From a virus (lineage: Duplodnaviria > Caudoviricetes), in the IMG/VR virus record IMGVR_UViG_3300038406_000132, positions 1 to 43,369 of that record: a DNA stretch of 43,369 nucleotides; one strand, given 5' to 3'. The notes under the pieces are model-generated. The model saw nothing but the letters and a program-made list of their open reading frames with translations. It was not told the origin of the DNA and did no database searches. The position numbers were made by a program, and so were the translations under genes. Of this stretch, positions 8,028-32,347 are shown in pieces. The stretch's first letter is position 1. Every line of letters starts with the position of its first letter.

Positions 8028-8213
8028 GTGTTCAAAGATGACAAGAAATATAACCACGATGGCGGATGGTCATACCCGAAGCCGACACATCCAGACGAAC
8101 CCGCATGGCAATATGAGATGCGGGTTAAGGATTTCGCATCTCAATTGAAAGCCAACGTTTACCTTGCGGTCATCCTCGGTGGTTTCGTCGTTTGGCTACT
8201 GATGTGGAATTAG
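8028..8213 (+). CDS. small membrane protein (61 aa)
   Basis: GGAGG SD before GTG 8028; C-terminal TM VYLAVILGGFVVWLLMW; 4-nt convergent overlap with the giant ORF. Confidence 0.6.
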   Translation: MFKDDKKYNHDGGWSYPKPTHPDEPAWQYEMRVKDFASQLKANVYLAVILGGFVVWLLMWN

Positions 8214-11200
8214 TCCACAAACTCGGCGATTGGCGATAGCAACCCCCCACCTTCGCGCAGCTTGTCGGCAAGCTTCTTGATCTTCGACAGGTCCGTAACC
8301 GGCGGTTTGCCGTGGATGTCCCCGCCCTTGATGCTCTGCTCGATTGCCGAGATATTGTAGCGGGCGCGCTCGCGGCGGCGGTTGATCAATGATCTGGCTT
8401 TCGCCTTGAAATTTGACGCCGTCACCTTGTCCCGTTCCAGATCGAGCATCTGGCGTTCGGCGTAATACTCCACCATGAAGCGCATGGTGGCAAGCTGGCG
8501 CAGATCATAGATATCCTGCTGCTCCCGCGCCCAGGCTTCCGTCGTGACCTTGCCGTCATCGCGCGCCTTGTCGTTCGCCTTGATGTCCTTGCGGTATTTC
8601 GAAAGCAGTTTGTCGGATTTCTTGTAGATGGCGTAGAGGCGCTTTTCCAGTTCGAGATTCGGCAGGATGTCCTTTGCCGCCTGTGAGCCCTTTGCGGCGT
8701 CCCGGCGCACATCCTCGTAAGGCTTCATCTTCTCGTCGCGGATCGCGTAATAGTCGTTCGAGTAACCATAGCCAACTTCATCGGAGACAAACCGGCGGAT
8801 GATCGGTATGTCATTAAGGCGGATTGGCTCTTTCGTCACATACTGACGTTCGCCCATCGTGTAGAGCCGGGCGATCTCGTTGCCAAGCCCGCCGATGCCG
8901 AAGGTCCAGATATGCTTCAAGGTCTCCGGCGAGAAGTCGGTTTCGACGCCGAGCAGCTTGCCCTTGTGATACTCATCGCCGCCGCCGAGCCCGTTGACCC
9001 AGCGCGCCACCTGCTTGTAGACATCGGGCGTGGTGCGAAAGGACAAGTCGGTATCCGGCTCCGAAGGATCGAAGCTCATCGGGTAGACCGGTCCACCGTG
9101 AAACTTCGTATTGGTGTACATTTCCACGAACGGCTTGGCAATGGTCGGCGAGAACGCCGCGAGCGGGTTCGGATGCGCGCCGAGCGGATCGAAATGCCCG
9201 TGCGCGATCGAAACCATTTCCCCGAATGTCTTTCCGGCCGTGCGTTCTTCCTTCAGAAGATCGGTATTCTGATAGATGGCGTGCTCCATGAGCAGCCGGC
9301 CGAGATTGACGATTGCGCCGTAGCCATAGGGCATCGGCATCTTGAAGGCCACGGCATCGCGGCCGGACACGCCTTCCTTGCGTTCCGCGAACGGATTGAG
9401 GAACAGCCAGTTATTGGCGCGATCGTAATCCGAGGTCGTCTCGTAGATGTTCTTTTCTTCGTCGTCGCCGAGCGCCGCGCCGATCAGGACATTGTACAGC
9501 GCTGTCATCGCGCCGAGCCCGACAAGCGAGGCGAGAATGCCGTAGCGGCGTCCGGGCGTTGCGTCCTTGAACGCCTTCGACAATCTGTGCGATCCCTGAA
9601 TGGACGGGTTGGCGAACAGATACATGGCCAGCACCATCTTCGAGGCCGGGCTGTCCAGCCGTCCGCGGCGGTTGAAGTTTACGGTGATATTCTTGGCGAT
9701 CGAGGCGGCCTTTTCCTTCGACAGTCCTGATTCCAGCGCGATCTTGTATGCGGCCAGGCGCGTGGCGTTCTCGAAGATATTGTTGAAGCCGCCGACGACA
9801 TCCTTGAAGCCCTTCCACAGCGCATTAGCGCGGCGTTCTGGATTGAGCAGGCCAGCGCGCAGAAGGCGCACATCGCGGGCAAGCTGGGCCTGCTGGCGTT
9901 CCCAGTCTTTCAGGGAATAGAAGCCTGTCGCGCCGCCAGTCCTCCTCATCTCGCGGTAAAGGTCGGCCCATTGGCCCGTTCCCCGGCCGGTCTCGACGGC
10001 AATGATGGCTTTCATCCCGCGCACGGAATTGCTCATGACGCGGCGAAAAGCTTTCTTGTGGCCGGCCGCCATGAGGTTGATGCCGGCCGCCTGAAAGTCG
10101 CGTATGAAGTTGGGCAGGGCAAAGGACGGGTTCAGCGATGTCGCCATCATGGCGATCCAGCGATTGAACGCCCAAGCCGCCTTCATCAATCCCATGCCCT
10201 GCGTGATGCCGACGTTCATCATGGCGTCGCGCAACTCCGGCTTCAGGAACCGGATCGAACGGCGCTCGCCGTTCACCACTACCGACATGGTGTTCGGATC
10301 GAGGAAGGAGAGCGGATCGGACTGTTCCTTCACCATCTCCCTGAACTGCTTGGCGGTCTGCACCGGCGCATTGGCGACAAGCGCTGTCTGCATGCCGGTG
10401 CGCTTGTCGATGAAGCGCTTCATCTTCGGCGTGTCGATCAAGGCGACATCGGGCATCGGGTGCGCTTTCAGCATCTCGTAAAGCGATTGCGCGACACGAT
10501 TGCGCTCGCCTCGAACCAGCGTTTCGAGGTAATCCTGCACCGAGCGCGAGATCAGGTCATGAGCGCGGCTCTTGCGGCCCATCGCCCGGACCATATCCTT
10601 GTTGGTGACGGAGAAACCCTTCGGGACATTGACGTTCGCCGGCGTGCGTTCGGCATCGTGCTGGGGATCGCCCTTGAGCGGAACATAATCCTTGTAGGTC
10701 TTGCGCAGTGTGTCGGCTTCATCCTGCGTCATCAGGCCATAAACGACACGGGAATCAAGCTTGGCGTCGTTGATCGCATAGAGCATCTGTGCGATACGGT
10801 CGTAGTCCTTCGCCTTGCCGGAGTTCTGCACCGATTGCAGCACGATGCGCGCATCCGCCGTGGACATGCCGGAGCCGCCGTCCTGCATCTTGGGATTGAT
10901 CGAGGCGATCTGCTTGTTGCGTTCTTCTGCGTGCCGGGCGTAGAGGTAGACTTCAAGCTGTTCGAGATCGATGCCGCTTTCAGCGATCGCCTTCTTCAGC
11001 GGCTCGACATGGCTCTCCTCAAAATCCTCGATACGGGTTTGCAGGCGCGAGTGATACAGTTCTTCCCGCAAGTAGGGCTGCATGTCGTCGGGGAGATCGA
11101 CATTCTGTTCGCGCTTCTGCGCCTCCTGAAGCCGCCTGACGGGCAGGAAATTATCCTGCCATGTATTGCGGATGGACTGCAGCTGGCTGCCGAAGGCCCC

Positions 11201-14200
11201 CGCAGCGCGCTGGAAATAGCTTCTGGAGCGGTTGCGCATGTAGCGGCGGGATTCCGGTTCAAGCCCGGCATAGCCGTCGTAAAATTCCTCATAGGCGCGG
11301 CCAATGGCTGAGGTCGGATTGCGGCGGCCAGTGAGAGCGAAAGCTGCATCGGATAGGTTTGGACCGAATGCATCGTTGAAGAATGCATTAAGTCCATCTA
11401 GCGTTGGACGGTCAAATGCCTTGTGGGCGATGCTGTCTCCCGTTTCGGGATCAGAAACCTCAACATCCAAAGGTGCGCCACGGCGTGCTCGCAATAGAGC
11501 GCTGAGTTGACTGTGGGTTGGCCTTATAACGACATTGGCTACGCCTTGATTATCATATCGCATCGCGTGCGACTTCGACATGAAATCATACATATGCGGA
11601 GTTGTATTCTCAATGTAGTTATTGACGGGATACCCAGGCAACACCTCTGAGAGCACGCGGTGATCAATCCATCGTTTGCCTTGAACAAGATCCTCCGTAT
11701 AGGCTTCGCCGGTGCTTGTTTCACCTCGGCCGATTTGATGGCGGCCAGAGAAATCCAGCATACGGCCATTTGGAAGAATGTAACCCGCTTCGTCGGGATC
11801 ACGGGTTAGCCCGAAGGTATCAATAGCATGCTGGATTAATGCGCTATCTGGCTGACGTTCAGATTCCGTCTGCCCCTGCCTCGCAAACCGCGCCATAGCG
11901 CTATCCAGCGCTGCTTCAGCGTCTTCAACTGACAGCCCGGCGATCCGCGCAATGATGCGTTCACTCAGATCAGATCGGTTCTGCGCTTCCATGCGTTCCC
12001 GCGCGGCGTCACGCTGGCGGGCTTCCGGGCCTTTCGCAACAGTCTCGAACACCTGCTCATAGGCTTCGATCTTCTGCCCTTTGAGTGCGCGCATGATCCG
12101 GTTTATGAAGGCGTTGAGGCGCTGGAACAGGCGCTGCCATACGGTGGATGCTGGGCGCTTGCCTTTCCGCCATTCGGCGAATTCCCAAGCGACAGCTTCC
12201 TCATACATCTGATCGAGGGCTTGTTCCTCCGTCAGTTCACCGCGCTGGACAAGATCGTTGAAACGCTTGCCGTATTCGTCTGGAACGTTATGCTTTTGCA
12301 GCCAGTCGTTTCTGATCGCGGCGGCTTTCAGTGTTGACCATTCCGCATCGTTGATGATGTTCAGCGCGCGCACGGCGTGAATGACTTCATGATCGCCGAT
12401 GGCTTTGGGATCATTGGCTTTCAGCGCCACGAAGATCGAAGTCAGGCTCTTGATATATGCGCCTTCGACGCCCTGCGGCAAATCCTTGAACCTGATCTTG
12501 ACGCCCGGAGCCATCCGGTTGATTTCCGCTTCGACTTCGGCGAAGATCTTCTCACGGTTGTTCGCCGCTTCTGCTGTCAGGCGATAGCCATTTTTCCCGT
12601 TACCGATTGAAAGGGGCTGATCCTCTATAGCGTAGCTTATCCGGGGATCTCTCGGGTCGAAAGTTCCACGGTTGCCGATGGCGGATTTGATCTGGGTGGG
12701 ATCGAATGCAATCCAGCTATCTTTGGCCTCCGGTGCAACCTTAAGGAAATCAGCATCTGAGGTTTCGAATAGGTCATCTCTACCTAAAGACTTCGCCTTA
12801 TCGATACCTTCTCCACGATTCAAGTAAACGATTCCATCGAAACCGCGCTGCTTCAGAATATCAATAACATATGCCATAGCCTGATCTGGAGACATATCTT
12901 CATCGAGCGTCTTTTGAAGAATACTGCTCCGCTCAGTCCACGATATAGCGTTGGCCTCCATCAGCCCATGAACTATTCCCTCGGCATGGTGCATGCCGCC
13001 AGCATCGACGGCTCGAATTGGATTCGATATAGAAAGATACGCTGGATATACAGCGCCGCGCCCAGCTTCACCGAGAGACTGACCTCTTTCCGCAAAGTCT
13101 ATGATGTCGCCTGCTTGCTGCTTCGTTCCGAAGTGCGTGCCGGAATGGAAAACCTGAATATCCGCATCCGTCGCATGATAAACAACCAGCGGCCGCCCGC
13201 CTTCATCAACGACCTTGCTTTCTTTAAAAAAGTTCCTGAACTCAGGCGTCAGTATCTGAGGCGCAGGCTGGCCTCCACGCAGGGAGAACATCTGATCGAC
13301 AACGCCCTGCCGTTCTTCAGCAGATACAGACTCGCCGTTCTTTTTCGTGATCTTGACGAGGGAGTCGTCGAAAACGACATAGCTGTTGGATGTCCCGCGC
13401 GCGCCCGCCCTTGGGTCTGTCTCGGCGTAGCGTATGCCTGGTATTCCGGCGTCGAGCAGGAGGGTTGAACTGTCGCCTCTTCTATTCAACATCGCCAATG
13501 CTTCCCGAACATTCATCTTGGCAACATCGGGATTTGACGCATCAAGCCCCGCGCGTACCAGAGCGGACTTGATGCCGTCGGCTTGCTCTCCTATGGCAGC
13601 ATCATAATCCAGAAGCTCTTTCGGCTCGACATCCATCTCCACTGTGTAGAGCGTACCCGTACCCGTGACTTCGCCCGACTTTACAGCCCTGACCTTATCA
13701 AGATATTCCTGTGTGTCTGCACGGCCTCCCGAACGTTCCACTTGCTCAATGGCGATGCCTTCAAGATCATCCAGCGTCCGCCCATATGCATCCGTGCCAT
13801 CAAGCTTGGCGGCGGCCAGTTCCGCGATGTCTGCGTCGATAATGCTCTCACCATTCAGCGTGAGATTGCCCTGTCCACCTGCCATGCGGTATGTCCTGGC
13901 GAGGCTCTCACTATCAGAGAATGAAAACCCGCGGCCGAATGCCTGATCTCCGTCGCCAGTCCCCATTCTCGACATATCGAACCGGTCGAAATCATGCGGC
14001 GAGCCGTGGTAGCCGCGCAGGGCGAACATCGTGTCCGCATCTGTCGTCACCGGAAGCTCATCGATCCACTTCTTCGATCTGATCCCCGCTTCGAACCTGG
14101 GCAAATCAAGGTTCAGGCCATCGACAACATGAAGATCGATCTCGTTCGCCCCGTTCCGGATGGCGGCGGCAACTCTGTGATTGCCATCCAGCAGGAGGTA

Positions 14201-17200
14201 TTTGCCTCCGGCCCGGATTGCCCGGATGGCGCCGTCTTCCGTATCCGTGATATTGTTGGCGGCGTAGTCTTCGACGACGCTAGGATTTATGGCTTCCTGA
14301 GTCGAGATCAGTTCACCGATGCGAACCTTGCGCGGGGATGCCGGCAGTTCCAAAAGCCTGTCAATGACATCTTCGAATGCGGAGTTGCCTTCAGCTTCCT
14401 TTCCGAGCATTAAAATCGGTAGCGGATTGATGTCTTCGCCTTTAAGGTCTTCTGACGGTTCCGGGCGATAGGTCGGCGGGGATCTGTCAGGATCGCGCAG
14501 GGCAAACATCTGATCTGGAGAGTCAATACGCAAGTGAAACGATGGCGGGCCAAAGCGACCGTCTTCTGTCCAGCCTGCATTTCGGAAGAAGCTCGCAAAT
14601 TGATCAGTCAGGACATTTTCGACATAGACCGCCTGAATGCCGTTGCGCTTGGCTGTCTCGATAGCGGAGGCCAGAACGTCACGGAATGTGCCCTGTCCAC
14701 GCTTTGCGCGCGAGACTTCGATTGATGCGATGTCCAGCGTCGGGAGCACCTCATCCGTATTTGGATCGGGCCGTTCGCTTTTACGGACGTAAGCCTTGAA
14801 CCCGTCGCCATCGATCCATTCGTTCCGGAAATCGCCGTCGAGGAAACCTTGAAGCTGGGTTTCCCAATCCGATTTCCCGCGCGAGGAAAGCGCGAACATC
14901 GCATCACCATCCGCCGCCGCAATCTGCGCCTCGGCAGGCAAGCCCTCCCAGAGACCATCGATCTCCTGCGTCGCAGAGCCTTCCTCGCGGCGTTCCAGCA
15001 ACTGCCGGGGGCTGAGATACATTTCTTCTTCAGCCGACCACTGGTGCCATTTGACGGTCTCAGGATCGCGCTTCTTCCAGAACTTGTGGCCGGATTCGGT
15101 CAGCAGGCCGGAGGGCTGGAGTTTGACGCCGAAATGTTTCTCGACCTGATCATAGAGTTTTGCGCCGGAGCCGGGGGCCTCGACATCGTAGACGAAGCCG
15201 CGCCCGTTCGATGCCTGCCGGACATGCATGGTTGCAACCGGCTTGGCGGTCTTGCCGGAGCCTTCAGGATAGAGCGAGTATTTACGGCGCGCTAAGCCGC
15301 CTTCGACCGGCGAGAGGTCTTTGAACTCGCCGCGGAAGCCGGGGACTTCGAAGGCTTCGTTGCTCGGGGCTTGTGACGCATCCTTGCCTTGTAGCTTTCC
15401 ACGCGGTCCCACAGGTTCTGATACTGCGGATCGCCCGGCTGTGCCTTCGCCAGCAACGCCTCGATCTGCGCCAGATGGCTTTCGCGATTTTGCTGGACTT
15501 TTGTCGAGGACAGTCGTTTCGGCATCGGGTGCTCCTTCCGGTGCGACCTTAGCAGGTTTTCTTGTCAGGGCAAAACGGGTGTCCTTATCAGCTTTGACGC
15601 CAAGGTGCTGGCGAGCCATGCTGCGCGCATGCTGCGTAAACAGACGCGTCTTTGGACTATCGTCCAGCTTATCCAGTTTCGCCGCAGTTTCAACCGCCCC
15701 ATTGAGCGCGGTTACCGCGGCATCGCGATCGCCGGACTCATAGGCGCTGAGGATTTGCTTATAATCGCTGATGAGCCTGTCGAAGGTCGTGCGCGCTTCA
15801 CCAGTAAATCCGCTGGCGCGGCGTGTAGCCGCCGGGGCCTCGCCTTCGAAACCGCGGTTGACAAGCCCATCAAGTGATTGGGTGGACTCATCCCACGCGG
15901 CGCGGAAAAGGTTCTGCTCGTGGGTAAAGCTCCCGGCGTCTTTCTTGAGTGCAAATTTCGTGTCGCTCGCCGCCGGCGCAAACTCCTTGCGCTTATCCCC
16001 ATCCTTCAACCAGCCCTTGAACTCATCAACCGGCACGGTGTAGATTGAGCCTACGCGATCCGCCTTATCGGAATACGATCCGCGATAGGCTTTTTCCGCC
16101 GCCTCCTGATCTTTGAAACCGTACAGAATCTTGTGCTCGTCGAGCTTGCCGGTCTTCGGATCGATCTGGTTGACGACGGTCACTTCCTGCGATTTCAGGT
16201 CAGGCCCGAGGAAGATGTCTACGGCATCGCCGTCCTTGCCTTCTTCACCCTTGATATAGCCGTAATGCGCCTGTGCGGTGGCTGACCATTCCTTGCCGTC
16301 AGCATCCACGCCGCGGCGTTCCGCGCCTTTCGGGGTTTCGATCGCAACCTTGACGCCAAGCCCTTTTGGCGTCAGCTTGACACTGGCCTTCCGGTAGTTC
16401 CCCGCCTCTTTCTGCGCTTCGCTCGGCTCGGTATCGACCAGCGTTGCGACCTCATCCAGATCGCTTTCCGTCTCGGCGGGTGCAGGTTTCTTTGCCGTTG
16501 CTGTATCGTCATCGGGAAGCTCTTCGAAGATGTCCTCGTCTTCGGCTTCCTCGAATGCGGTTTCAGGTTCGGCCGCCGCTTCTTGCTCCGGTTCCGCTGC
16601 GGGGGCCTCGTCTTCGGGCGGCGGGGTTTTCTTCTTCGCCGCCTTCTTCTCGCCGCGCACTTCGCTGATTGCTGTCGATGTACCACGCGCGCCGCCACCG
16701 AGCAGCGTGCCGATCAGACCTTCTTCCGCCGCGGTTTCGCCGATCTTGCGTTCTGGATCGTAGAATTCCTTGGCGGTGATGTCGGATGCAACTGACTGGC
16801 CGAATTCCTGCGCGCCTTCTTCCGCCGCGCCGACCGCCGCCTGCGTGCCGACGTTCTTGACCTTCTGCGCCGCAGTGACGCCCTTCTTCATGGTCGAGGC
16901 GGCTTTCATCGTCGCCGTAACCGGCAGCGCTTCAGTCAGCCCGAGCGCAAATCCCGTCGCCGTCGCCTTGGCCCTGTCGGCTTCGGAGACATCCTTGCCT
17001 TCCTTCATCTTCTCGGTTGCAGCCTCGAAATGCTGCGAACCGCTTAGCGTACCGCCGAGCAAGAACGGAAACGACTGCGCAATGAGATGGAAGGCTTTCG
17101 GCCCAAGCCGGGTGATGGTCTGGATCGCACCCGTTCCGTAGAACGCCGTCAGCGATCCGACGCCGTGGGAGAGCTTCTGACCGAACTCGTCGGCGCGCGC

Positions 17201-18367
17201 CTCGTCGCCGGGGAACACCTGTCGCACGAACTCATCGATCTGCTTGCCGGTCTGGTAGATCGACGCTTCATCTGGCGCGGCGTCGCTGCCTGCGACTTTC
17301 TTTGCGTAGCCCTGCACGATCCCGGCGAACTTGACCGGCGCACCGACGAGCGTTGTCCCGAGCGATTGCGCGGTACTCTCGACGCCCGCCCGCAAGCCCG
17401 TCTTGGTCGGCAGCGGCGATGTCCCGCCCTCGATCGCCTTGATACGGGAAAGCTTCTTTTCCCCGCCCTCGATCATGTTCCTGGCGATTTCGTAAGCCGG
17501 GTCGGCTTCCATCTGCTCACGGTCAGGCCAGACGCCCTTGATCTGCTCCATCAGCCGCTTGCCGTCAGCAATCGAGCTTTCCGCGTCGGCGCGCGTTTCC
17601 TTGATCCATTCGAGCTGGGCAGGATTGGGCTTGCCCTCGGGCTTGCCGATCACGCCGAAAGCTTCTCCGAGGACGCCGAGATCGGGACCGCTCTGCATAT
17701 CACGGCCCAAGGAGGCAGAACGCTCACGCGCAACTTTCACAGCTTCCTCAACGCTATCATAGGCATTGAACTGCTTGCCAGACTTGAGCGCTTGATTTAC
17801 AGCCCAGTCTTCGAACTCAGCGGTGCCGGGTTCATACGGGGGACGCTTCCCGTCCCAGATGCTGGGAATGTTGGTCGGCTTTCCGCCATTCAAGAAAGGA
17901 TGCGTTACGGTTATGCTTTCTTCTGTCGCCCAAGATCCATCCTTGCCTGGGATAAATGGACGCCCCGTAGTAGGATGGAGCTTACTAGAAAGGTCTTCCG
18001 TTTCAGAGGTGAAGTCAAACGCCGAGACGGGCTTGTCTTCGCGCGGCGCCTGGTACGGTGGCGACAGCGCCGGTTCACGAGGGGCTTGTTGCGGGGCAGG
18101 TGCGGCGGTGGGCGGTTCAAGGAAATCGAACGCGCCGATGCTTTGCAGCACGCCTGCCGGGTTTGGCAGCTTCGGCGTGAATGTCGGCAGGTCTGCCTCG
18201 GAGAACGCTGACTGCGGCGCGGGAGCTGGGGCGGGAGCGTCCTCGACCGTCGTATCGAACGGTCCCACCGCGCTGACCGGATTGCGCTCGGGCAGCGGCG
18301 TGTTCAGTTCAGACAGCCGGTCGCGCGCGCTGCGCAGGGCCTCGATAAAATCAACGTCATATTTCAT
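8210..18367 (-). CDS. large polyvalent / internal virion protein (3385 aa): PPase-like, 2 GNAT-like, ParB-like, 2 ART-like, zincin metallopeptidase, LPD38-like C-terminus
   Basis: IETPKG..HYGYIKG..DGDAVDIFLGP; IEVSRAKRGQG; LLDGNHRVAAA; YHGSPHDFDRFD..GRGFSF; VVYHAT..GFDGIVY..QIKSAIGNRGTFDP; HEVIH..EEAVA; NITVNFNRRG..YLFANPSIQG; last gene of the ejection module. Confidence 0.9.
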   Translation of the reverse strand: MKYDVDFIEALRSARDRLSELNTPLPERNPVSAVGPFDTTVEDAPAPAPAPQSAFSEADLPTFTPKLPNPAGVLQSIGAFDFLEPPTAAPAPQQAPREPALSPPYQAPREDKPVSAFDFTSETEDLSSKLHPTTGRPFIPGKDGSWATEESITVTHPFLNGGKPTNIPSIWDGKRPPYEPGTAEFEDWAVNQALKSGKQFNAYDSVEEAVKVARERSASLGRDMQSGPDLGVLGEAFGVIGKPEGKPNPAQLEWIKETRADAESSIADGKRLMEQIKGVWPDREQMEADPAYEIARNMIEGGEKKLSRIKAIEGGTSPLPTKTGLRAGVESTAQSLGTTLVGAPVKFAGIVQGYAKKVAGSDAAPDEASIYQTGKQIDEFVRQVFPGDEARADEFGQKLSHGVGSLTAFYGTGAIQTITRLGPKAFHLIAQSFPFLLGGTLSGSQHFEAATEKMKEGKDVSEADRAKATATGFALGLTEALPVTATMKAASTMKKGVTAAQKVKNVGTQAAVGAAEEGAQEFGQSVASDITAKEFYDPERKIGETAAEEGLIGTLLGGGARGTSTAISEVRGEKKAAKKKTPPPEDEAPAAEPEQEAAAEPETAFEEAEDEDIFEELPDDDTATAKKPAPAETESDLDEVATLVDTEPSEAQKEAGNYRKASVKLTPKGLGVKVAIETPKGAERRGVDADGKEWSATAQAHYGYIKGEEGKDGDAVDIFLGPDLKSQEVTVVNQIDPKTGKLDEHKILYGFKDQEAAEKAYRGSYSDKADRVGSIYTVPVDEFKGWLKDGDKRKEFAPAASDTKFALKKDAGSFTHEQNLFRAAWDESTQSLDGLVNRGFEGEAPAATRRASGFTGEARTTFDRLISDYKQILSAYESGDRDAAVTALNGAVETAAKLDKLDDSPKTRLFTQHARSMARQHLGVKADKDTRFALTRKPAKVAPEGAPDAETTVLDKSPAKSRKPSGADRGVAGEGTAGRSAVSEPVGPRGKLQGKDASQAPSNEAFEVPGFRGEFKDLSPVEGGLARRKYSLYPEGSGKTAKPVATMHVRQASNGRGFVYDVEAPGSGAKLYDQVEKHFGVKLQPSGLLTESGHKFWKKRDPETVKWHQWSAEEEMYLSPRQLLERREEGSATQEIDGLWEGLPAEAQIAAADGDAMFALSSRGKSDWETQLQGFLDGDFRNEWIDGDGFKAYVRKSERPDPNTDEVLPTLDIASIEVSRAKRGQGTFRDVLASAIETAKRNGIQAVYVENVLTDQFASFFRNAGWTEDGRFGPPSFHLRIDSPDQMFALRDPDRSPPTYRPEPSEDLKGEDINPLPILMLGKEAEGNSAFEDVIDRLLELPASPRKVRIGELISTQEAINPSVVEDYAANNITDTEDGAIRAIRAGGKYLLLDGNHRVAAAIRNGANEIDLHVVDGLNLDLPRFEAGIRSKKWIDELPVTTDADTMFALRGYHGSPHDFDRFDMSRMGTGDGDQAFGRGFSFSDSESLARTYRMAGGQGNLTLNGESIIDADIAELAAAKLDGTDAYGRTLDDLEGIAIEQVERSGGRADTQEYLDKVRAVKSGEVTGTGTLYTVEMDVEPKELLDYDAAIGEQADGIKSALVRAGLDASNPDVAKMNVREALAMLNRRGDSSTLLLDAGIPGIRYAETDPRAGARGTSNSYVVFDDSLVKITKKNGESVSAEERQGVVDQMFSLRGGQPAPQILTPEFRNFFKESKVVDEGGRPLVVYHATDADIQVFHSGTHFGTKQQAGDIIDFAERGQSLGEAGRGAVYPAYLSISNPIRAVDAGGMHHAEGIVHGLMEANAISWTERSSILQKTLDEDMSPDQAMAYVIDILKQRGFDGIVYLNRGEGIDKAKSLGRDDLFETSDADFLKVAPEAKDSWIAFDPTQIKSAIGNRGTFDPRDPRISYAIEDQPLSIGNGKNGYRLTAEAANNREKIFAEVEAEINRMAPGVKIRFKDLPQGVEGAYIKSLTSIFVALKANDPKAIGDHEVIHAVRALNIINDAEWSTLKAAAIRNDWLQKHNVPDEYGKRFNDLVQRGELTEEQALDQMYEEAVAWEFAEWRKGKRPASTVWQRLFQRLNAFINRIMRALKGQKIEAYEQVFETVAKGPEARQRDAARERMEAQNRSDLSERIIARIAGLSVEDAEAALDSAMARFARQGQTESERQPDSALIQHAIDTFGLTRDPDEAGYILPNGRMLDFSGRHQIGRGETSTGEAYTEDLVQGKRWIDHRVLSEVLPGYPVNNYIENTTPHMYDFMSKSHAMRYDNQGVANVVIRPTHSQLSALLRARRGAPLDVEVSDPETGDSIAHKAFDRPTLDGLNAFFNDAFGPNLSDAAFALTGRRNPTSAIGRAYEEFYDGYAGLEPESRRYMRNRSRSYFQRAAGAFGSQLQSIRNTWQDNFLPVRRLQEAQKREQNVDLPDDMQPYLREELYHSRLQTRIEDFEESHVEPLKKAIAESGIDLEQLEVYLYARHAEERNKQIASINPKMQDGGSGMSTADARIVLQSVQNSGKAKDYDRIAQMLYAINDAKLDSRVVYGLMTQDEADTLRKTYKDYVPLKGDPQHDAERTPANVNVPKGFSVTNKDMVRAMGRKSRAHDLISRSVQDYLETLVRGERNRVAQSLYEMLKAHPMPDVALIDTPKMKRFIDKRTGMQTALVANAPVQTAKQFREMVKEQSDPLSFLDPNTMSVVVNGERRSIRFLKPELRDAMMNVGITQGMGLMKAAWAFNRWIAMMATSLNPSFALPNFIRDFQAAGINLMAAGHKKAFRRVMSNSVRGMKAIIAVETGRGTGQWADLYREMRRTGGATGFYSLKDWERQQAQLARDVRLLRAGLLNPERRANALWKGFKDVVGGFNNIFENATRLAAYKIALESGLSKEKAASIAKNITVNFNRRGRLDSPASKMVLAMYLFANPSIQGSHRLSKAFKDATPGRRYGILASLVGLGAMTALYNVLIGAALGDDEEKNIYETTSDYDRANNWLFLNPFAERKEGVSGRDAVAFKMPMPYGYGAIVNLGRLLMEHAIYQNTDLLKEERTAGKTFGEMVSIAHGHFDPLGAHPNPLAAFSPTIAKPFVEMYTNTKFHGGPVYPMSFDPSEPDTDLSFRTTPDVYKQVARWVNGLGGGDEYHKGKLLGVETDFSPETLKHIWTFGIGGLGNEIARLYTMGERQYVTKEPIRLNDIPIIRRFVSDEVGYGYSNDYYAIRDEKMKPYEDVRRDAAKGSQAAKDILPNLELEKRLYAIYKKSDKLLSKYRKDIKANDKARDDGKVTTEAWAREQQDIYDLRQLATMRFMVEYYAERQMLDLERDKVTASNFKAKARSLINRRRERARYNISAIEQSIKGGDIHGKPPVTDLSKIKKLADKLREGGGLLSPIAEFVD

Positions 18368-19201: not shown

Positions 19202-20017
19202 TCAAGCCGCCATTTTCTTGGTGCGTTTATCAAGTGCCTGGATGGCCGCGAGCATTTTTCCGAGCATGTCGGCCATGTCGATCTGAGAACCATCGCTGCC
19301 TTCGGGGAATTCGCGCGCGTAGTCCTGCGCCATGACGCCGGTGCGTTGCTCTGGAACGCCAAACGCCGCTTGCGCTTCCGGCTTGTAGGAATAATCCTCC
19401 GCTGGCATGGTCTCGAATGCGCCAAGCACAGCCTCGCCATCGGCAGGCGTCCGGTCCTCCTTCAGCCGTTCGTCGCTCATGTAGGCTCCGGCAGCCGTTG
19501 CCGCCGTTCCCACCACTTGCGATAGAAGGCTTGGTCCGGGCGCTGTCGTTTTCGACGTTTCTGTCCGCGGCGTTCCAGACAAGACACCTGCAAGCTGACT
19601 GGCTTGATCAAGATTATAGTTCTGACCGCGCAGATGCTCCGACTGCGCGGTGCGATCGGCTGACTCATAAGCCTGCGCATTGATCTGGTTGGCGACCTGG
19701 CCGATCTTGTCGTACATTGCGCGATCGGATTCGCTTTCGGCAACGCCGTGGCGCGAGCCGCCGAAAGCGCCAGCCCCGATCGCCTTGCTCGCAATATCCT
19801 GCTTACCGATCTTGTTGGCGCGGATGAGTTCCCCAACACTGTCTTTCAACACCTTATCAGTGTACGGATTCATGTACTTGTCTGTTGTCGAGGATGGATC
19901 ATAGGCTTCGAAGGGCGTGGCGTTGCCCTTGGCCTCGTAGAACAAATCCTCTCCGGCTCGTTCCATCCATTCAGGGATCTTGTTGACCTGTGTCGTGGTC
20001 TGCTTCGAGCTGCCCAT
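19202..20017 (-). CDS. ejection/pilot protein with C-terminal Peptidase_S74 auto-cleaving chaperone domain
   Basis: YMNPYTDKV and GAGAFGGSRHGVAE (podovirus ejection protein motifs); SDERLKED...GVMAQD...LAAIQAL (S74). Confidence 0.8.
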   Translation of the reverse strand: MGSSKQTTTQVNKIPEWMERAGEDLFYEAKGNATPFEAYDPSSTTDKYMNPYTDKVLKDSVGELIRANKIGKQDIASKAIGAGAFGGSRHGVAESESDRAMYDKIGQVANQINAQAYESADRTAQSEHLRGQNYNLDQASQLAGVLSGTPRTETSKTTAPGPSLLSQVVGTAATAAGAYMSDERLKEDRTPADGEAVLGAFETMPAEDYSYKPEAQAAFGVPEQRTGVMAQDYAREFPEGSDGSQIDMADMLGKMLAAIQALDKRTKKMAA

Positions 20018-20469
20018 TACCGGCCTCCCTCATAAAGAAACTGCCCGCCGAGAAAGCGGAATCCGTTGAGTTCCATGAACCTGTCCTTTGCCTGGCGATC
20101 GCCGCCGCCGATCAGATCAATGCGCAGCGGCATGTTGAGTTCGTCCGCGCGGACCTTGGCGGCGTCGAGCAAATGCTTTGCCGTGCCGCCCTTGCGATAA
20201 TCCGGATCGACGAAAAAATGCTCATTCACCAGGAATTTTTGCGTCCGATTCCACGGGTGATGATGTGGAACGAGCGCGATCACGCCGACGATATAACCTG
20301 CATCTTCCGCGACGATGAGAAACCCTGCCTCGACCTGATGCAACAGATTGTGCAACGCAAACGGGATTTCGTGCTCGGGGATGTCGAAATCCATCTCCGC
20401 GCGGGCGCGCACGAGGCAGGCTTCGACATCGATGATGTCATCGTACCGCGCCGGGCGAATTTCGATCAT
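20017..20469 (-). CDS. GNAT-family acetyltransferase (150 aa)
   Basis: Start MIEIRPARYDD with ATGA overlap; FFVDPDYRKGGTAKHLL motif A; the upstream part of ORF 20017..20889 is a spurious extension. Confidence 0.85.
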   Translation of the reverse strand: MIEIRPARYDDIIDVEACLVRARAEMDFDIPEHEIPFALHNLLHQVEAGFLIVAEDAGYIVGVIALVPHHHPWNRTQKFLVNEHFFVDPDYRKGGTAKHLLDAAKVRADELNMPLRIDLIGGGDRQAKDRFMELNGFRFLGGQFLYEGGR

Positions 20470-20720
20470 GACGATGCCGCCAGCACTCCGGCATTGATCA
20501 GTTCCTGAATCAGCGTGCCGAGCACGTCGTCGGTGACGGCAATGGTTGCGCCATTCGCATCGAACGTCTTGTCCGTGGTAACATTCGTCAACACCCAGCC
20601 GGTGCTCTTGACCTGTTCCAGTGATTGCAGGCGCTGCTCGACCGCGCGCAGGATGCTGTTCATCGTCTCCGAGTCGTATTCTCTCGGCGCGTCTTGAATA
20701 GGCAGGGGGCTTGCTGGCAT
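20466..20720 (-). CDS. small virion protein (84 aa)
   Basis: Coupled to both neighbours; LPIQDAPREYD..ILRAVEQ and LGTLIQELINAGVL. Confidence 0.75.
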   Translation of the reverse strand: MPASPLPIQDAPREYDSETMNSILRAVEQRLQSLEQVKSTGWVLTNVTTDKTFDANGATIAVTDDVLGTLIQELINAGVLAASS

Positions 20721-22507
20721 TATCTGCGTCCGTGTGGTGAGATGTCCGCACGCCAGAGACCTGCCCTGAAATCGCTGTCGAGTTCATCCGAGGCGATCTT
20801 GAAGGCGATCGAGCGGCCCTTGGCGCGGGCGGAGATTTGCGAGGTGCTTTCCCCGAAGCTGTACGGTCCTTTCGTGACCGAGCTTGCATTCGGGTCTGTC
20901 TTGGCGATAAGGGTGAGAGTGTGGTTGCCGGTCAGGCGCTGGAAATCATTGATCAGGCGCCGCACATGCATGGACTGGTCGCCGTTGCCGAGTTCCATAT
21001 CGCCGGACTGGAGGTAATAGGATAGCGCCGAGCCATTGGCGTCAGATCCGCTCTCCTGGAGAAACATCATCCCGGAATTGTCTACGGCCACCGGCTTTGC
21101 CGTGAACACGTTCTTGTCGAGCCATGCGCTCCTGGCGAAGTCGGAGGGATACCAGATGCGGTCCTTGACATTGTAGATGATCGCCTTGGTGTTCTGCAAA
21201 TCGCTGAGCGTCGGATAGAACCACCAGACCTCATGTTTATCGACCACAGTACCTGACGCGACCTTGAACGCCTGCACGAGATTGAGATTATCGAACACTT
21301 CATCCTGAAGATCGCATTCGATTTCGCGCACCGCGCCATCGAACATGAAGAACCGGCCGCGGCCCATCCAGAAGGCGAGATCGTTGAACGTCACTCCGGC
21401 ATGCGGACTGAGCATTCCGCAGCGCTCACCGACCTTGCGGATGCCGAACGTAAATGGCGGGCCGGTGAAGGTCATGATATGGGCGGAAAAGTCTGTAACG
21501 ATGAGGCGGCCGAAACGCGTCGAGATCGAGCCCACAATATCGTTGCCGGACTCGATCAGCTTGTCGCCGGCCGTATTCGTGGCGCTTGCCGTCCAGGTCG
21601 TCAGCGTTTCCTGATCGGCCCATGCGGTCAGGAGCGGGTCTTGCGCCGAACCATCGTGCGCGCCGAGCGCCACGATGTGGCGTGTGTCCTGAGAGACATA
21701 GAGACCGTTGACGACGGATGGAGAGTTCGAGATCGCCGCTGCGCGTGTGCTGGTCCCTGCAGACGCATCCCAGTGATACATCGCGCCGCCCCAATAGGTG
21801 GCGACCAGATCCTCGCCCCAATTGTCGAGCGTCCAGATGCGGAAGGCGAGCGTTCCGGCCAGCGTTGGGACCGAGCCGCCCCACGGGCCTTCGTCCCACG
21901 TTCCCTCGCCCCAGGCCAGCGTCTCGACCGTCTCGGTGCTTTCATCGAGGCCGATGGTGATTTCATACTCGTAATCGACGGTTCCACCGCCACCGCTGAC
22001 CGTGGATGTTGCGGCAGATGAATGCTCGATCGTATAACTGTTAGCGCCCGGAACTGTCGTAACGACATAAGCCCCGTCGATGGTAATTCCGCCAACTGCC
22101 GTGGCATTGTCGAAGATGACCGTATCGCCGACCGCCGTGCCGTGCCCTGTGTCGTTTACGGTGACGGTCTCGTCCGTGTCGACCGTATCGAACGGATCGG
22201 TGAGCTGGCCGCTTTCCCGGATCGGCGTGATGTCGTAGAGGGTATCGTTATCGTCATAGAGCCAGAGCTTGCGCCGCGTGCCGAAGGCGAAATAGGCTGT
22301 GCCGTCCAGCGTGCGCCAGACATGCGCGCCGCGCGCCGGGTCTGCGAGATCGGCGCTGGATTCCGATAGTTCGACATAGCCGCCGATCTTCTCCGGAAAG
22401 CGCTTGAAGAAACGGACATTGTTGCCATCGACATACCGATTGCGCGATGCATAGGCACTGTCTTCCTTGATGATGCCGGGCGGTATGTCAAGCGGTGTCA
22501 GGCTCAT
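20720..22507 (-). CDS. tail tubular protein B / nozzle (P22 gp10-like), 595 aa
   Basis: WTLDNWGEDLV, WADQE, GPPFTFG, EVWWFYP and WLDKNVF; beta-rich; position in the tail module. Confidence 0.8.
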   Translation of the reverse strand: MSLTPLDIPPGIIKEDSAYASRNRYVDGNNVRFFKRFPEKIGGYVELSESSADLADPARGAHVWRTLDGTAYFAFGTRRKLWLYDDNDTLYDITPIRESGQLTDPFDTVDTDETVTVNDTGHGTAVGDTVIFDNATAVGGITIDGAYVVTTVPGANSYTIEHSSAATSTVSGGGGTVDYEYEITIGLDESTETVETLAWGEGTWDEGPWGGSVPTLAGTLAFRIWTLDNWGEDLVATYWGGAMYHWDASAGTSTRAAAISNSPSVVNGLYVSQDTRHIVALGAHDGSAQDPLLTAWADQETLTTWTASATNTAGDKLIESGNDIVGSISTRFGRLIVTDFSAHIMTFTGPPFTFGIRKVGERCGMLSPHAGVTFNDLAFWMGRGRFFMFDGAVREIECDLQDEVFDNLNLVQAFKVASGTVVDKHEVWWFYPTLSDLQNTKAIIYNVKDRIWYPSDFARSAWLDKNVFTAKPVAVDNSGMMFLQESGSDANGSALSYYLQSGDMELGNGDQSMHVRRLINDFQRLTGNHTLTLIAKTDPNASSVTKGPYSFGESTSQISARAKGRSIAFKIASDELDSDFRAGLWRADISPHGRR

Positions 22508-27565: not shown

Positions 27566-28543
27566 TCAAGAGTCGGCGACCGCAATGCCCACACCACCCG
27601 TTGCTGCTGCCGCCGGATTGTTCGTAAACGCAGTGTCGCCCGCGTCGTACTCGGTTGCACCAACGAGCATGCAATCTTTCAGGAGAACGTTGCCGCCCGG
27701 CGATGCATTGATGCTCATGCCTTGCGTCATTGTCGTTCCCATGCTGTTGAATACGCAGTTGTCGAACAGCACGAACCGATCGATGCCGAGTGCGCCGATC
27801 GTGACGAACAACGCATCCGCCGAATCCAGGTGAGCCGGAAAAATGCAGTTCTCGAAGATATTGCGCGTCGAACCACCCGAAATCAGCAGTGACGAATTCG
27901 CCGCGCCGCGGGTCACGGTATCGAGACCGATTACGCAGTCCTTGAAGTAATTTTCGCCGAGGCCAGTTCCTGTGATCGTCAAGGAACGCCCGCCGACATG
28001 GTCCGCCGCCGTCTGGTTCCCCATGCCGCCGAAATGAACATTGTAGTAAGCATTGCGCTCACCGCCATCGACCCAGCAGATCTGCGCACTGTCATCATCA
28101 TAGCCGTGGAACGCATGGATGTTGGCGAACACGCAGCCGTCACCCGTGACGTTAACCAACGGGGTGAACTCGGTGCCGTCAGAGCGGATCGAGACGCGCT
28201 GAGAAACGCGGTTGTAAGCGAGGCCGACAATATGGCACTGGTCCTTCGACCACGCCAGCGTCGCGCCTTCGCGGACACCGATGGAGGAGCCGGAGCCCGA
28301 TGCTATATTTGCGTTCGTGCCCGTGACAGAACCGATGACGATCGCCACGTCATTGCGGTTCGATGTCATGAGCGAATGCGCTTTCGAGAGCGTCGCCAGA
28401 GCACGGCTCGGCTTGTCGCCACGCTGGCCGTCAGAACCATTGAGCTGATCGACAAAGAACACTTTCGAGTTCTTGCCGAAGGGAATTCCTGGAAGCAGGG
28501 GAACGCCGCCGAGGGCGAACACCATATCCTGATGTGTCGTCAT
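27566..28543 (-). CDS. beta-helix (pectin-lyase-like) virion protein, possible head fibre/decoration (325 aa)
   Basis: VFFVDQLNGSDGQRGDKPSRALATLSKA motif and repeated N-x-F-x-x-C-x-F strands. Confidence 0.7.
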   Translation of the reverse strand: MTTHQDMVFALGGVPLLPGIPFGKNSKVFFVDQLNGSDGQRGDKPSRALATLSKAHSLMTSNRNDVAIVIGSVTGTNANIASGSGSSIGVREGATLAWSKDQCHIVGLAYNRVSQRVSIRSDGTEFTPLVNVTGDGCVFANIHAFHGYDDDSAQICWVDGGERNAYYNVHFGGMGNQTAADHVGGRSLTITGTGLGENYFKDCVIGLDTVTRGAANSSLLISGGSTRNIFENCIFPAHLDSADALFVTIGALGIDRFVLFDNCVFNSMGTTMTQGMSINASPGGNVLLKDCMLVGATEYDAGDTAFTNNPAAAATGGVGIAVADS

Positions 28544-31915: not shown

Positions 31916-32347
31916 CTAGACGTAGAAAACGTACTGCCCAGCGGTCTCTTCATCGACGAACGACGTGATCCAGTCGTCATTGATAACGAGAATGTTCGCG
32001 CCCTTGAACTTGTAGCGGTGCGGCGAACGGGAGGCGTAGATGATCAGATCGCCGACCTTCGGCGTGTCTTCTTCGGAGAGACCGAGTTCTTTCCAGCGCG
32101 GGTGCTTGAAAGCGCATGGACCCATTGCTACAATGCGGCCGATGCAGTTCAACCAGTTCTGGGCGTCCACGCTTTCATCGGGGAGGTAGATCACCGCGCC
32201 GCCGCTGGTCTTGATCTCCTTCTTCGGCTTCACCGGCATAACCAGGATCTTGTAGCCGAATGGCTTGCCGATCCCGGAGGGGATCTCATCGGTCAGATCG
32301 TTCAGCCCGAAATCGTCTTGCGGCAGTGTGATAGTGAGATTACTCAT
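31916..32347 (-). CDS. groES: GroES-like co-chaperonin (Cpn10)
   Basis: KPFGYKILV..KTSGG..IYLPD..GRIVAMGP..KVGDLIIY..ILVINDDWI matches the Cpn10 pattern. Confidence 0.85.
   Translation of the reverse strand: MSNLTITLPQDDFGLNDLTDEIPSGIGKPFGYKILVMPVKPKKEIKTSGGAVIYLPDESVDAQNWLNCIGRIVAMGPCAFKHPRWKELGLSEEDTPKVGDLIIYASRSPHRYKFKGANILVINDDWITSFVDEETAGQYVFYV

Follow-up and report, generated by a model that had tools for sequence, protein, structure and literature searches.

Does the giant virion-cluster protein of a tailed phage carry, within one chain, both a protease and the sites at which that protease cuts? The question is raised by IMG/VR virus record IMGVR_UViG_3300038406_000132 (Duplodnaviria; Caudoviricetes), analyzed over its whole 43,369 nucleotides (the window), in which an open reading frame (ORF) at 8210-18367 on the minus strand encodes a protein of 3385 residues, here called P0001. 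A preliminary description of this DNA had noted a hexapeptide, D-x-x-F-A-L, recurring between the modules of the protein, together with an HEVIH zinc motif, and had suggested a self-processing polyprotein. P0001 is a typical phage polyvalent protein, a class already known: unrelated domains are fused in it (InPase, two ART-like domains and LPD38, with GNAT- and ParB-like modules seen through weak matches), Pfam matches are to InPase, ART-PolyVal and LPD38, the phage-only domains InPase and LPD38 are both present, and its gene is housed in a virion morphogenesis cluster with terminase, portal, capsid and SU10 adaptor genes upstream on the same strand. That the zincin of polyvalent proteins cuts them is a known proposal, made for the whole class as processing by its metallopeptidase (MPTase) domain (Iyer et al., 2017; PMC5512222), and the main text of that paper names no cleavage site or boundary motif. 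What is new here is a candidate site, a short tag that is also the joint of module exchange, and its match to zincin clades. Based on these sequence comparisons we propose that the protein's own zincin probably recognizes the tag and cuts the giant chain there into separate enzymes; modules swapped at tags, with a wording tied to zincin type, make such cutting likely.

The tag in the protein and across its family

All nine hexamers that had been listed as boundary tags are in frame in the giant ORF at the positions given in Table 1, as is HEVIH. The form D..FAL occurs six times and D..F[AS]L seven times, where shuffled sequences average 0.08 and 0.12 and none of 2000 shuffles equals either count, while HExxH alone is unremarkable (124/2000 shuffles). 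RISYAI and MARFAR lie outside the D..F[AS]L pattern and were included by position: RISYAI occupies a conserved slot 7 residues past the ART tail landmark, and MARFAR is the first candidate past the zincin, yet it is modeled inside a helix. FAL copies lacking the Asp, at residues 473 and 2749, look like chance. An Arg or Lys does follow most tags, being found within 3 residues downstream in 7/9. The earlier statement that a tag stands at every boundary holds for nine module joints but not between the N-terminal region and InPase, and no tag of the D..F[AS]L form lies inside the 1040-residue core; likewise the tags are mostly outside domains, except that DTMFAL leads directly into strand one of ART-like module 6. 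Synonymous codons vary among the copies (Phe is TTC in four and TTT in three) and the longest exact DNA match between any copies is 11 nt, which indicates that the repeat is maintained at the protein level. Among the 40 differences listed for one strain contig, 25 are at third positions and none is in a tag. Among the other late-gene ORFs a single D..F[AS]L is present, DMVFAL at 28511-28528(-), near the start of an unannotated ORF of 325 residues (27566-28543) behind the capsid gene; it is near chance level and a possible trans substrate.

The core of P0001 has 448 relatives, with matches in 360 phage records, and common cultured podoviruses are among the carriers of the family. For the tag, the family set comprised 268 core-bearing proteins, of which the 246 with a long enough variable region were kept, in 115 clusters at 60% core identity, and offsets were anchored on landmarks within domains that were set without reference to the tag. 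D-x-x-F-A-L is one local form of a tag found throughout the family, aromatic-[S/A/N]-x, which stands at fixed offsets past unrelated modules. Specifically, aromatic-[SANQ] stands at a fixed offset past four unrelated module tails, namely the ART tail (offset 7, weight 22.4/34 clusters), two tails that we take to be LPD1 and LPD23-like (slot weight 10.8/15 and 8.0/10) and the YHGS-type tail (7/9, at offsets 8-11). A model trained without the tested family finds the slot in 5/34, 8/12 and 7/8 clusters, as compared with 1-2% of displaced windows. The enrichment of the motif at domain boundaries is seen as a fixed slot past four module tails, but a generic matrix does not tell the cargo zone from the core, its matches being equally frequent in both. 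Two other approaches were rejected, as pooled 3-mer motif finding returned domain words and expectation-maximization motif finding was overfitted.

Modules are exchanged at the tag

The tag marks the points at which modules are added to or lost from the giant protein. In comparisons of close relatives, 111 of 224 alignment breakpoints fall within 10 residues of a tag (control, 10.6%); one cluster contributes 126 of the 224, and the cluster means are 0.46 versus 0.11 for the control over 16 clusters. The same is seen when contigs from four other runs are compared with the P0001 gene, where modules are skipped or swapped at tags; no RNA data set was listed as a holder. The ART module is skipped in two strain contigs, in frame in one (12616-13286) and with the intervening letters unread in the other (12589-13278), modules 2 and 3 are skipped in a strain contig, net in frame (14824-15968), and an ART tail is joined to module 6. 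Read by hand, the variant without modules 2 and 3 has A-A-T-D-T-R-F-A-L-T behind InPase, the DTRFAL of this new junction differs from the copy in the window by four synonymous changes, and, in other loose ends, foreign upstream sequence meets tag 2 and tag 3 within their first residues. Eight of 12 joint ends chosen in the P0001 gene lie within 10 nt of a tag where 7.4% would be expected, the 12 being hand-chosen from among the loose ends and joints listed and not independent; six joints outside the cargo zone or with fewer than 30 letters on one side, unjoined loose ends and the two ends of a 34-nt match were left out.

Tag wording and zincin clade

In the sequences compared, the wording of the third tag letter co-varies with the zincin clade, which is what recognition of the tag by the zincin would predict. 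The letter was put in a hydrophobic or a basic class; of 71 rows, 12 fitted neither and were dropped. Over the remaining 59 rows the class changes 7 times on the zincin tree versus 10 times on the core tree; over the 44 rows compared also on a tree of the ART domains, which carry the tag, it changes 5, 9 and 11 times on the zincin, core and ART-domain trees, and the third letter is predicted from the nearest neighbor in 33, 23 and 20 of 44, respectively. A prediction fixed beforehand was then tested on 145 new proteins found solely via the profile of P0001's zincin clade, and was borne out. The 26 that have the landmark comprise 13 hydrophobic, 2 basic and 4 other third letters and 7 without the aromatic pair, in comparison with 5, 17, 1 and 10 in 33 clusters with other zincins. 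The hydrophobic-to-basic ratio is thus 13:2 versus 5:17 elsewhere (Fisher p 2e-4) and, excluding sites directly before the zincin, 11:2 versus 5:13 (p 0.003), p-values that overstate the case because kin are not independent. The label 'no LPD38 core' in the held-out sets looked unreliable and was not used. An exact-3-mer test for dialects gave a modest result (28 versus 15.7 expected; 280/20000 permutations).

Exchanges of the zincin itself point the same way. The protein L148 has a core 71-78% identical to that of a group reading YNV and a different zincin, and it reads YNK, with the old YNV 13 residues on; L021 has undergone the reverse swap, with its wording changed accordingly. In the complete record G001, a core protein without a zincin and an upstream zincin-bearing giant of 2952 residues share the wording I/V-x-[RK]-S, with 5 copies in each (0.3 and 0.4 expected), and the nearest relatives of this giant's zincin are two that share that wording. 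When the records of zincin-less proteins were searched for a zincin, four of five gave no match, three records being incomplete or of unstated completeness. The two giant genes of G001 (L167 / G001:C1, ~32400-53800) are a few kb apart; the 2952-residue giant ends ...LLECLKK, its zincin-less LPD38 neighbor starts ...LTACMK, and the gene pair looks like a split giant protein. The zincin-less P0072, P0098 and L104 likewise start with a Cys-bearing word.

The exchange and the shared wording might also arise if the tag were a recombination joint, where cassettes are exchanged under the guidance of short DNA likeness and swapping within a lineage homogenizes the wording, with no cut being made. Swap breakpoints do cluster at the tags, the seven D..F[AS]L copies have a DNA identity of 0.64 versus 0.30 in their flanks, and the zincin and adjoining modules can move together. 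We nevertheless regard this explanation as unlikely: third codon positions vary freely, with no exact match beyond the 11 nt noted above, the DTRFAL of the new junction is synonymously recoded, and the wording tracks the zincin at non-adjacent sites and across the two genes of G001.

The zincin, the proposed cleavage and related systems

EEAVA, which had been put forward as a candidate for the third zinc ligand, is located as supposed, and its second Glu (E2057) is invariant, together with the H, E and H of the zinc motif, in an alignment of 41 rows. A first structure model of the domain had a poor sheet and no fold match. Where a zincin-like fold would have a three-stranded sheet following an N-terminal helix, the AlphaFold2 model has a helix and two strands, besides two ligand helices, with HEVIH within helix 93-107 and E2057 as the predicted Glu ligand on a second helix (153-175). 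The closest folds are sequence-specific zinc endopeptidases (Z 5.0-5.6, all below 8, at 14-17% identity); VIA scores Z 5.6 with a root-mean-square deviation of 5.2 over 143 aligned residues, and the best Foldseek E is 0.18. These best matches, the lethal-factor, PprI/IrrE and PPEP enzymes (Z 5.6, 5.4 and 5.0), which also give weak profile matches, have other proteins as their substrates, and no phage ejection protein is among them. HExxH is found in 145/145 members of P0001's zincin clade, although the search profile favors HExxH, and 4571 representatives match the profile of this clade at E 0.001. EExxH replaces HExxH in the zincin domains of P0110, P0113, P0119, P0120, P0122, L019 and L077, some such proteins retaining the tag before the core, and P0123, P0124 and P0125 are giants with three or four copies of P0001's zincin clade.

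We propose the following hypothetical mechanism. The chain would be packaged whole in the head and threaded out via the short tail with its N-terminal part leading, as has been proposed for the virion RNA polymerase (vRNAP) of phage N4 (PMC13434306). Packaging and ejection of P0001 are likely by analogy with its homologues, as two LPD38 relatives, phi24B gp47 (bioRxiv 10.64898/2026.04.10.717836) and JC1 gp69 (PMC9144972), were found in virions by mass spectrometry. The zincin would refold after ejection and then cut the chain at the tags. Cutting before ejection is less likely, since the chain would then no longer thread out as one piece. About eight cargo modules would be freed from the N-terminal piece and the C-terminal core, giving ten pieces: an 86-kDa N-terminal piece that keeps InPase, eight modules of 14-28 kDa and the core of 118 kDa. 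The polyprotein idea is partly supported, in that tags mark the module joints and their wording co-varies with the zincin clade; InPase would stay on the N-terminal piece. The bond cut may be x/F, F/A or A/L. Because tag 5 runs into the first ART strand, a position near the start of the tag is favored, whereas a third letter that switches would instead suit the main specificity pocket of the lethal-factor-like zinc endopeptidase group. The wording read would differ among zincin clades, being F/Y-[SA]-[LIV] here and F/Y-S-[RK], Y-N-[VI] or I-x-[KR]-S elsewhere. Whether this amounts to a general protease code, in which clades would each cut a short tag of their own, in cis or within a neighboring giant, and domains that acquire the tag would become injected and released effectors, is in our judgment an even question.

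Table 1. Modules, tags and motifs of the giant protein, with the evidence for each
Feature	Position	Strand	Evidence
Giant phage polyvalent protein P0001, 3385 aa	8210..18367	-	ORF and Pfam domains
InPase domain (aa 650-788), no upstream tag	16004..16420	-	PF18823 E 2.7e-45
Tag 1, DTKFAL	15947..15964	-	strain joint at 15968, recoded DTRFAL
Module 2, ~127 aa, unassigned; missing in one strain variant	15572..15946	-	no match above cut-off; joint 14824-15968
Tag 2, DTRFAL	15566..15583	-	differing upstream sequence joins at 15584 (run X2)
Linker and module 3, GNAT-like (lead only)	14906..15565	-	ESM Atlas feature matches 0.90, clusters about half PF00583
Tag 3, DAMFAL	14888..14905	-	differing upstream sequence joins at 14899 (run X3)
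Module 4, GNAT-like acetyltransferase	14516..14887	-	NCBIfam ArsN2 E 5.4e-05, below cut-off; Pfam GNAT E 0.02
Tag 4, DQMFAL	14498..14515	-	pattern match
Module 5, ParB-like (weak)	14036..14497	-	four ParB-like PHROGs, E 0.05-0.16
Tag 5, DTMFAL, abuts first ART strand	14018..14035	-	joint end at 14017
Module 6, ART-like (YHGS type)	13298..14017	-	partial PF18760 E 1.2e-05; 38 homologous stretches
Tag 6, DQMFSL	13280..13297	-	joint ends at 13278 and 13286
Module 7, ART-PolyVal; missing from two strain contigs	12644..13279	-	PF18760 E 9.7e-18; joints in X2, X5
Tag 7, RISYAI, conserved ART-tail slot	12626..12643	-	modeled coil, pLDDT (model confidence) <50
Zincin-like peptidase domain (aa 1931-2115)	12023..12577	-	invariant H, E, H and downstream E; fold matches Z 5.0-5.6
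HEVIH zinc motif	12377..12391	-	invariant H, E, H
EEAVA, predicted third zinc ligand	12188..12202	-	second Glu invariant
Tag 8, MARFAR, weakest case	11879..11896	-	modeled within helix
Module 9, ~180 aa, unassigned	11351..11878	-	no usable match
Tag 9, DAAFAL, precedes conserved core	11333..11350	-	pattern match
Conserved C-terminal core with LPD38 (8798-9448)	8558..11200	-	448 relatives; PF18857; 360 phage records

Within the gathered protein sets modules 2, 3, 4, 5 and 9 have no homologue, module 9 has no usable ESM Atlas match, and the GNAT and ParB assignments are below curated cut-offs. The tag-bounded modules at 11351-11878 and 15572-15946(-), for which no family or homologue was found, are candidate new early-infection effectors. 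Elsewhere in the cluster, a gene for a Cpn10-like co-chaperonin lies between the portal and capsid genes (31916-32347, minus strand), and the gene two upstream of the giant (19202-20017, minus strand, 271 residues), which adjoins a GNAT gene (20017-20889), has a Peptidase_S74 self-cleaving chaperone domain (E 6.2e-08) at its end but no tail-fibre match; its product is possibly a second self-processing virion protein of the same cluster.

The polyproteins of RNA viruses combine one chain, an embedded protease and a repeated consensus at domain joints. P0001 too has a repeated consensus at its domain joints, and it would differ in being a packaged and injected chain with a metallopeptidase as the proposed cutter and exchangeable cargo. 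It resembles the MPTase-bearing polyvalent proteins of Iyer et al. (2017), in size, unrelated enzymes, InPase, ART, LPD38 and MPTase domains, position among virion genes and proposed release of domains. With phi24B gp47 and the Bcep22-like, DarB-like proteins (JC1 gp69, BcepIL02 gp70) it shares the LPD38 core and a zincin, whereas their cargo differs and their wording is YSR, FSV or FSK; tag-like words are present at the zincin ends of the BcepIL02 gp70, POCJ13 and Vibrio K249 relatives, the candidate words of BcepIL02 lying near residues 3308, 3363 and 3751, and no processing of gp47 or of the Bcep22-like proteins is reported in the portions of the literature examined. The N4 vRNAP (gp50), too, is a giant chain of flexibly linked domains with an HExxH domain; it is ejected, and unlike P0001 its cargo is one polymerase. 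A Pfam scan of P0001 gave no polymerase match, and only residues 331-654 match the vRNAP family, outside the polymerase part, a weak likeness in the N-terminal region. The tag was not found in the two long linkers of N4 vRNAP, which fits with that chain staying whole.

The comparison with N4 bears directly on a second alternative, that the tag is a binding site for the zincin fold, or for another factor, and stays uncut, the binding serving to compact the chain, keep modules inactive or guide packaging and threading. Binding would account for the co-variation as well as cutting does, the N4 HExxH domain lies within an uncut, autoinhibiting C-terminal domain according to the relevant part of the structural report (PMC13434306), and the family includes H-to-E variants of the zinc motif, some with the tag before the core. 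The catalytic Glu and three predicted ligands are invariant in P0001's zincin clade, nine tags for one domain fit turnover better than one-to-one binding, and the two linkers that lack the tag in N4 are those flanking its RNA polymerase, all of which makes binding alone improbable, slightly more so than recombination alone. Least probable of all is that another protease, from head maturation or the host, cuts the tags while the zincin targets host proteins or the cell wall, since the peptidoglycan role proposed for the gp47 zincin in the phi24B preprint (10.64898/2026.04.10.717836), the tags retained in some zincin-less proteins and the single D..FAL near the start of another late ORF are set against a wording that follows the zincin clade, the near-chance level of that single copy, and profile scans that found no protease family for the genes upstream of the capsid gene.

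Several observations weigh against self-cleavage by the zincin, and part of the data is accounted for by recombination guided by short DNA likeness or by a tag that is bound and left uncut. Nearest-neighbor prediction over all 59 rows does no better with the zincin than with the core (37/59 for each), 11 of the 26 held-out landmark proteins fall in neither letter class, and P0003, P0088 and P0095 have P0001's zincin clade yet basic third letters. The generic motif model is not specific, the cargo zone being no denser in matches than the core and the nine sites ranking 1 to 325 of 3381; a match in the 100 residues before the core is, with a loose model, as common in clusters without a zincin (6/12) as in those with one (53/90); and no tag was seen by eye in the InPase tails of the best 12 of 47 homologues, nor before InPase. 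Modeling of the HEVIH domain, as the preliminary description had suggested, placed the ligand helices but no tag as a strand on the zincin, with MARFAR in a helix and tag 7 in low-confidence coil. N4 vRNAP is described as unprocessed, whole and tethered (section 8 of PMC5512222; parts of PMC13434306), and the family zincin profile detects the HExxH domain of this uncut protein (E 5.6e-10); a TLFHSK word near its C1/C2 border is ambiguous, that border being seen as continuous density. Of the P1 proteins DdrB, DarA and DarB, none has the tag at known processing points, and DdrB, a processed protein, has no such tag near residue 700. Searches of the literature found no cleavage at the tags in print and no paper on the tag motif, most subscription papers being outside their scope, and nothing on endopeptidase specificity; the available parts of a crAss vRNAP preprint (10.1101/2020.03.07.982082) and of PMC9503650 add no cleavage site.

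In the literature searched, self-processing of polyvalent proteins was proposed in 2017 without a site or a test. The tag described here pairs with zincin clades and occurs in cultured phages, which makes the proposal testable by a reporter assay with a specificity swap. Leu, Arg and Lys at the N-terminus are degradation signals in E. coli; were the cut to fall after the small residue, the new N-termini would be Leu, Arg or Lys and the effectors might, speculatively, be short-lived. The tags supply boundaries for unassigned cargo modules and account for the gain or loss of early-infection enzymes within a virion protein of phages. If the protease code is true, cut sites and the limits of cargo modules could be predicted from them in thousands of phage proteins.

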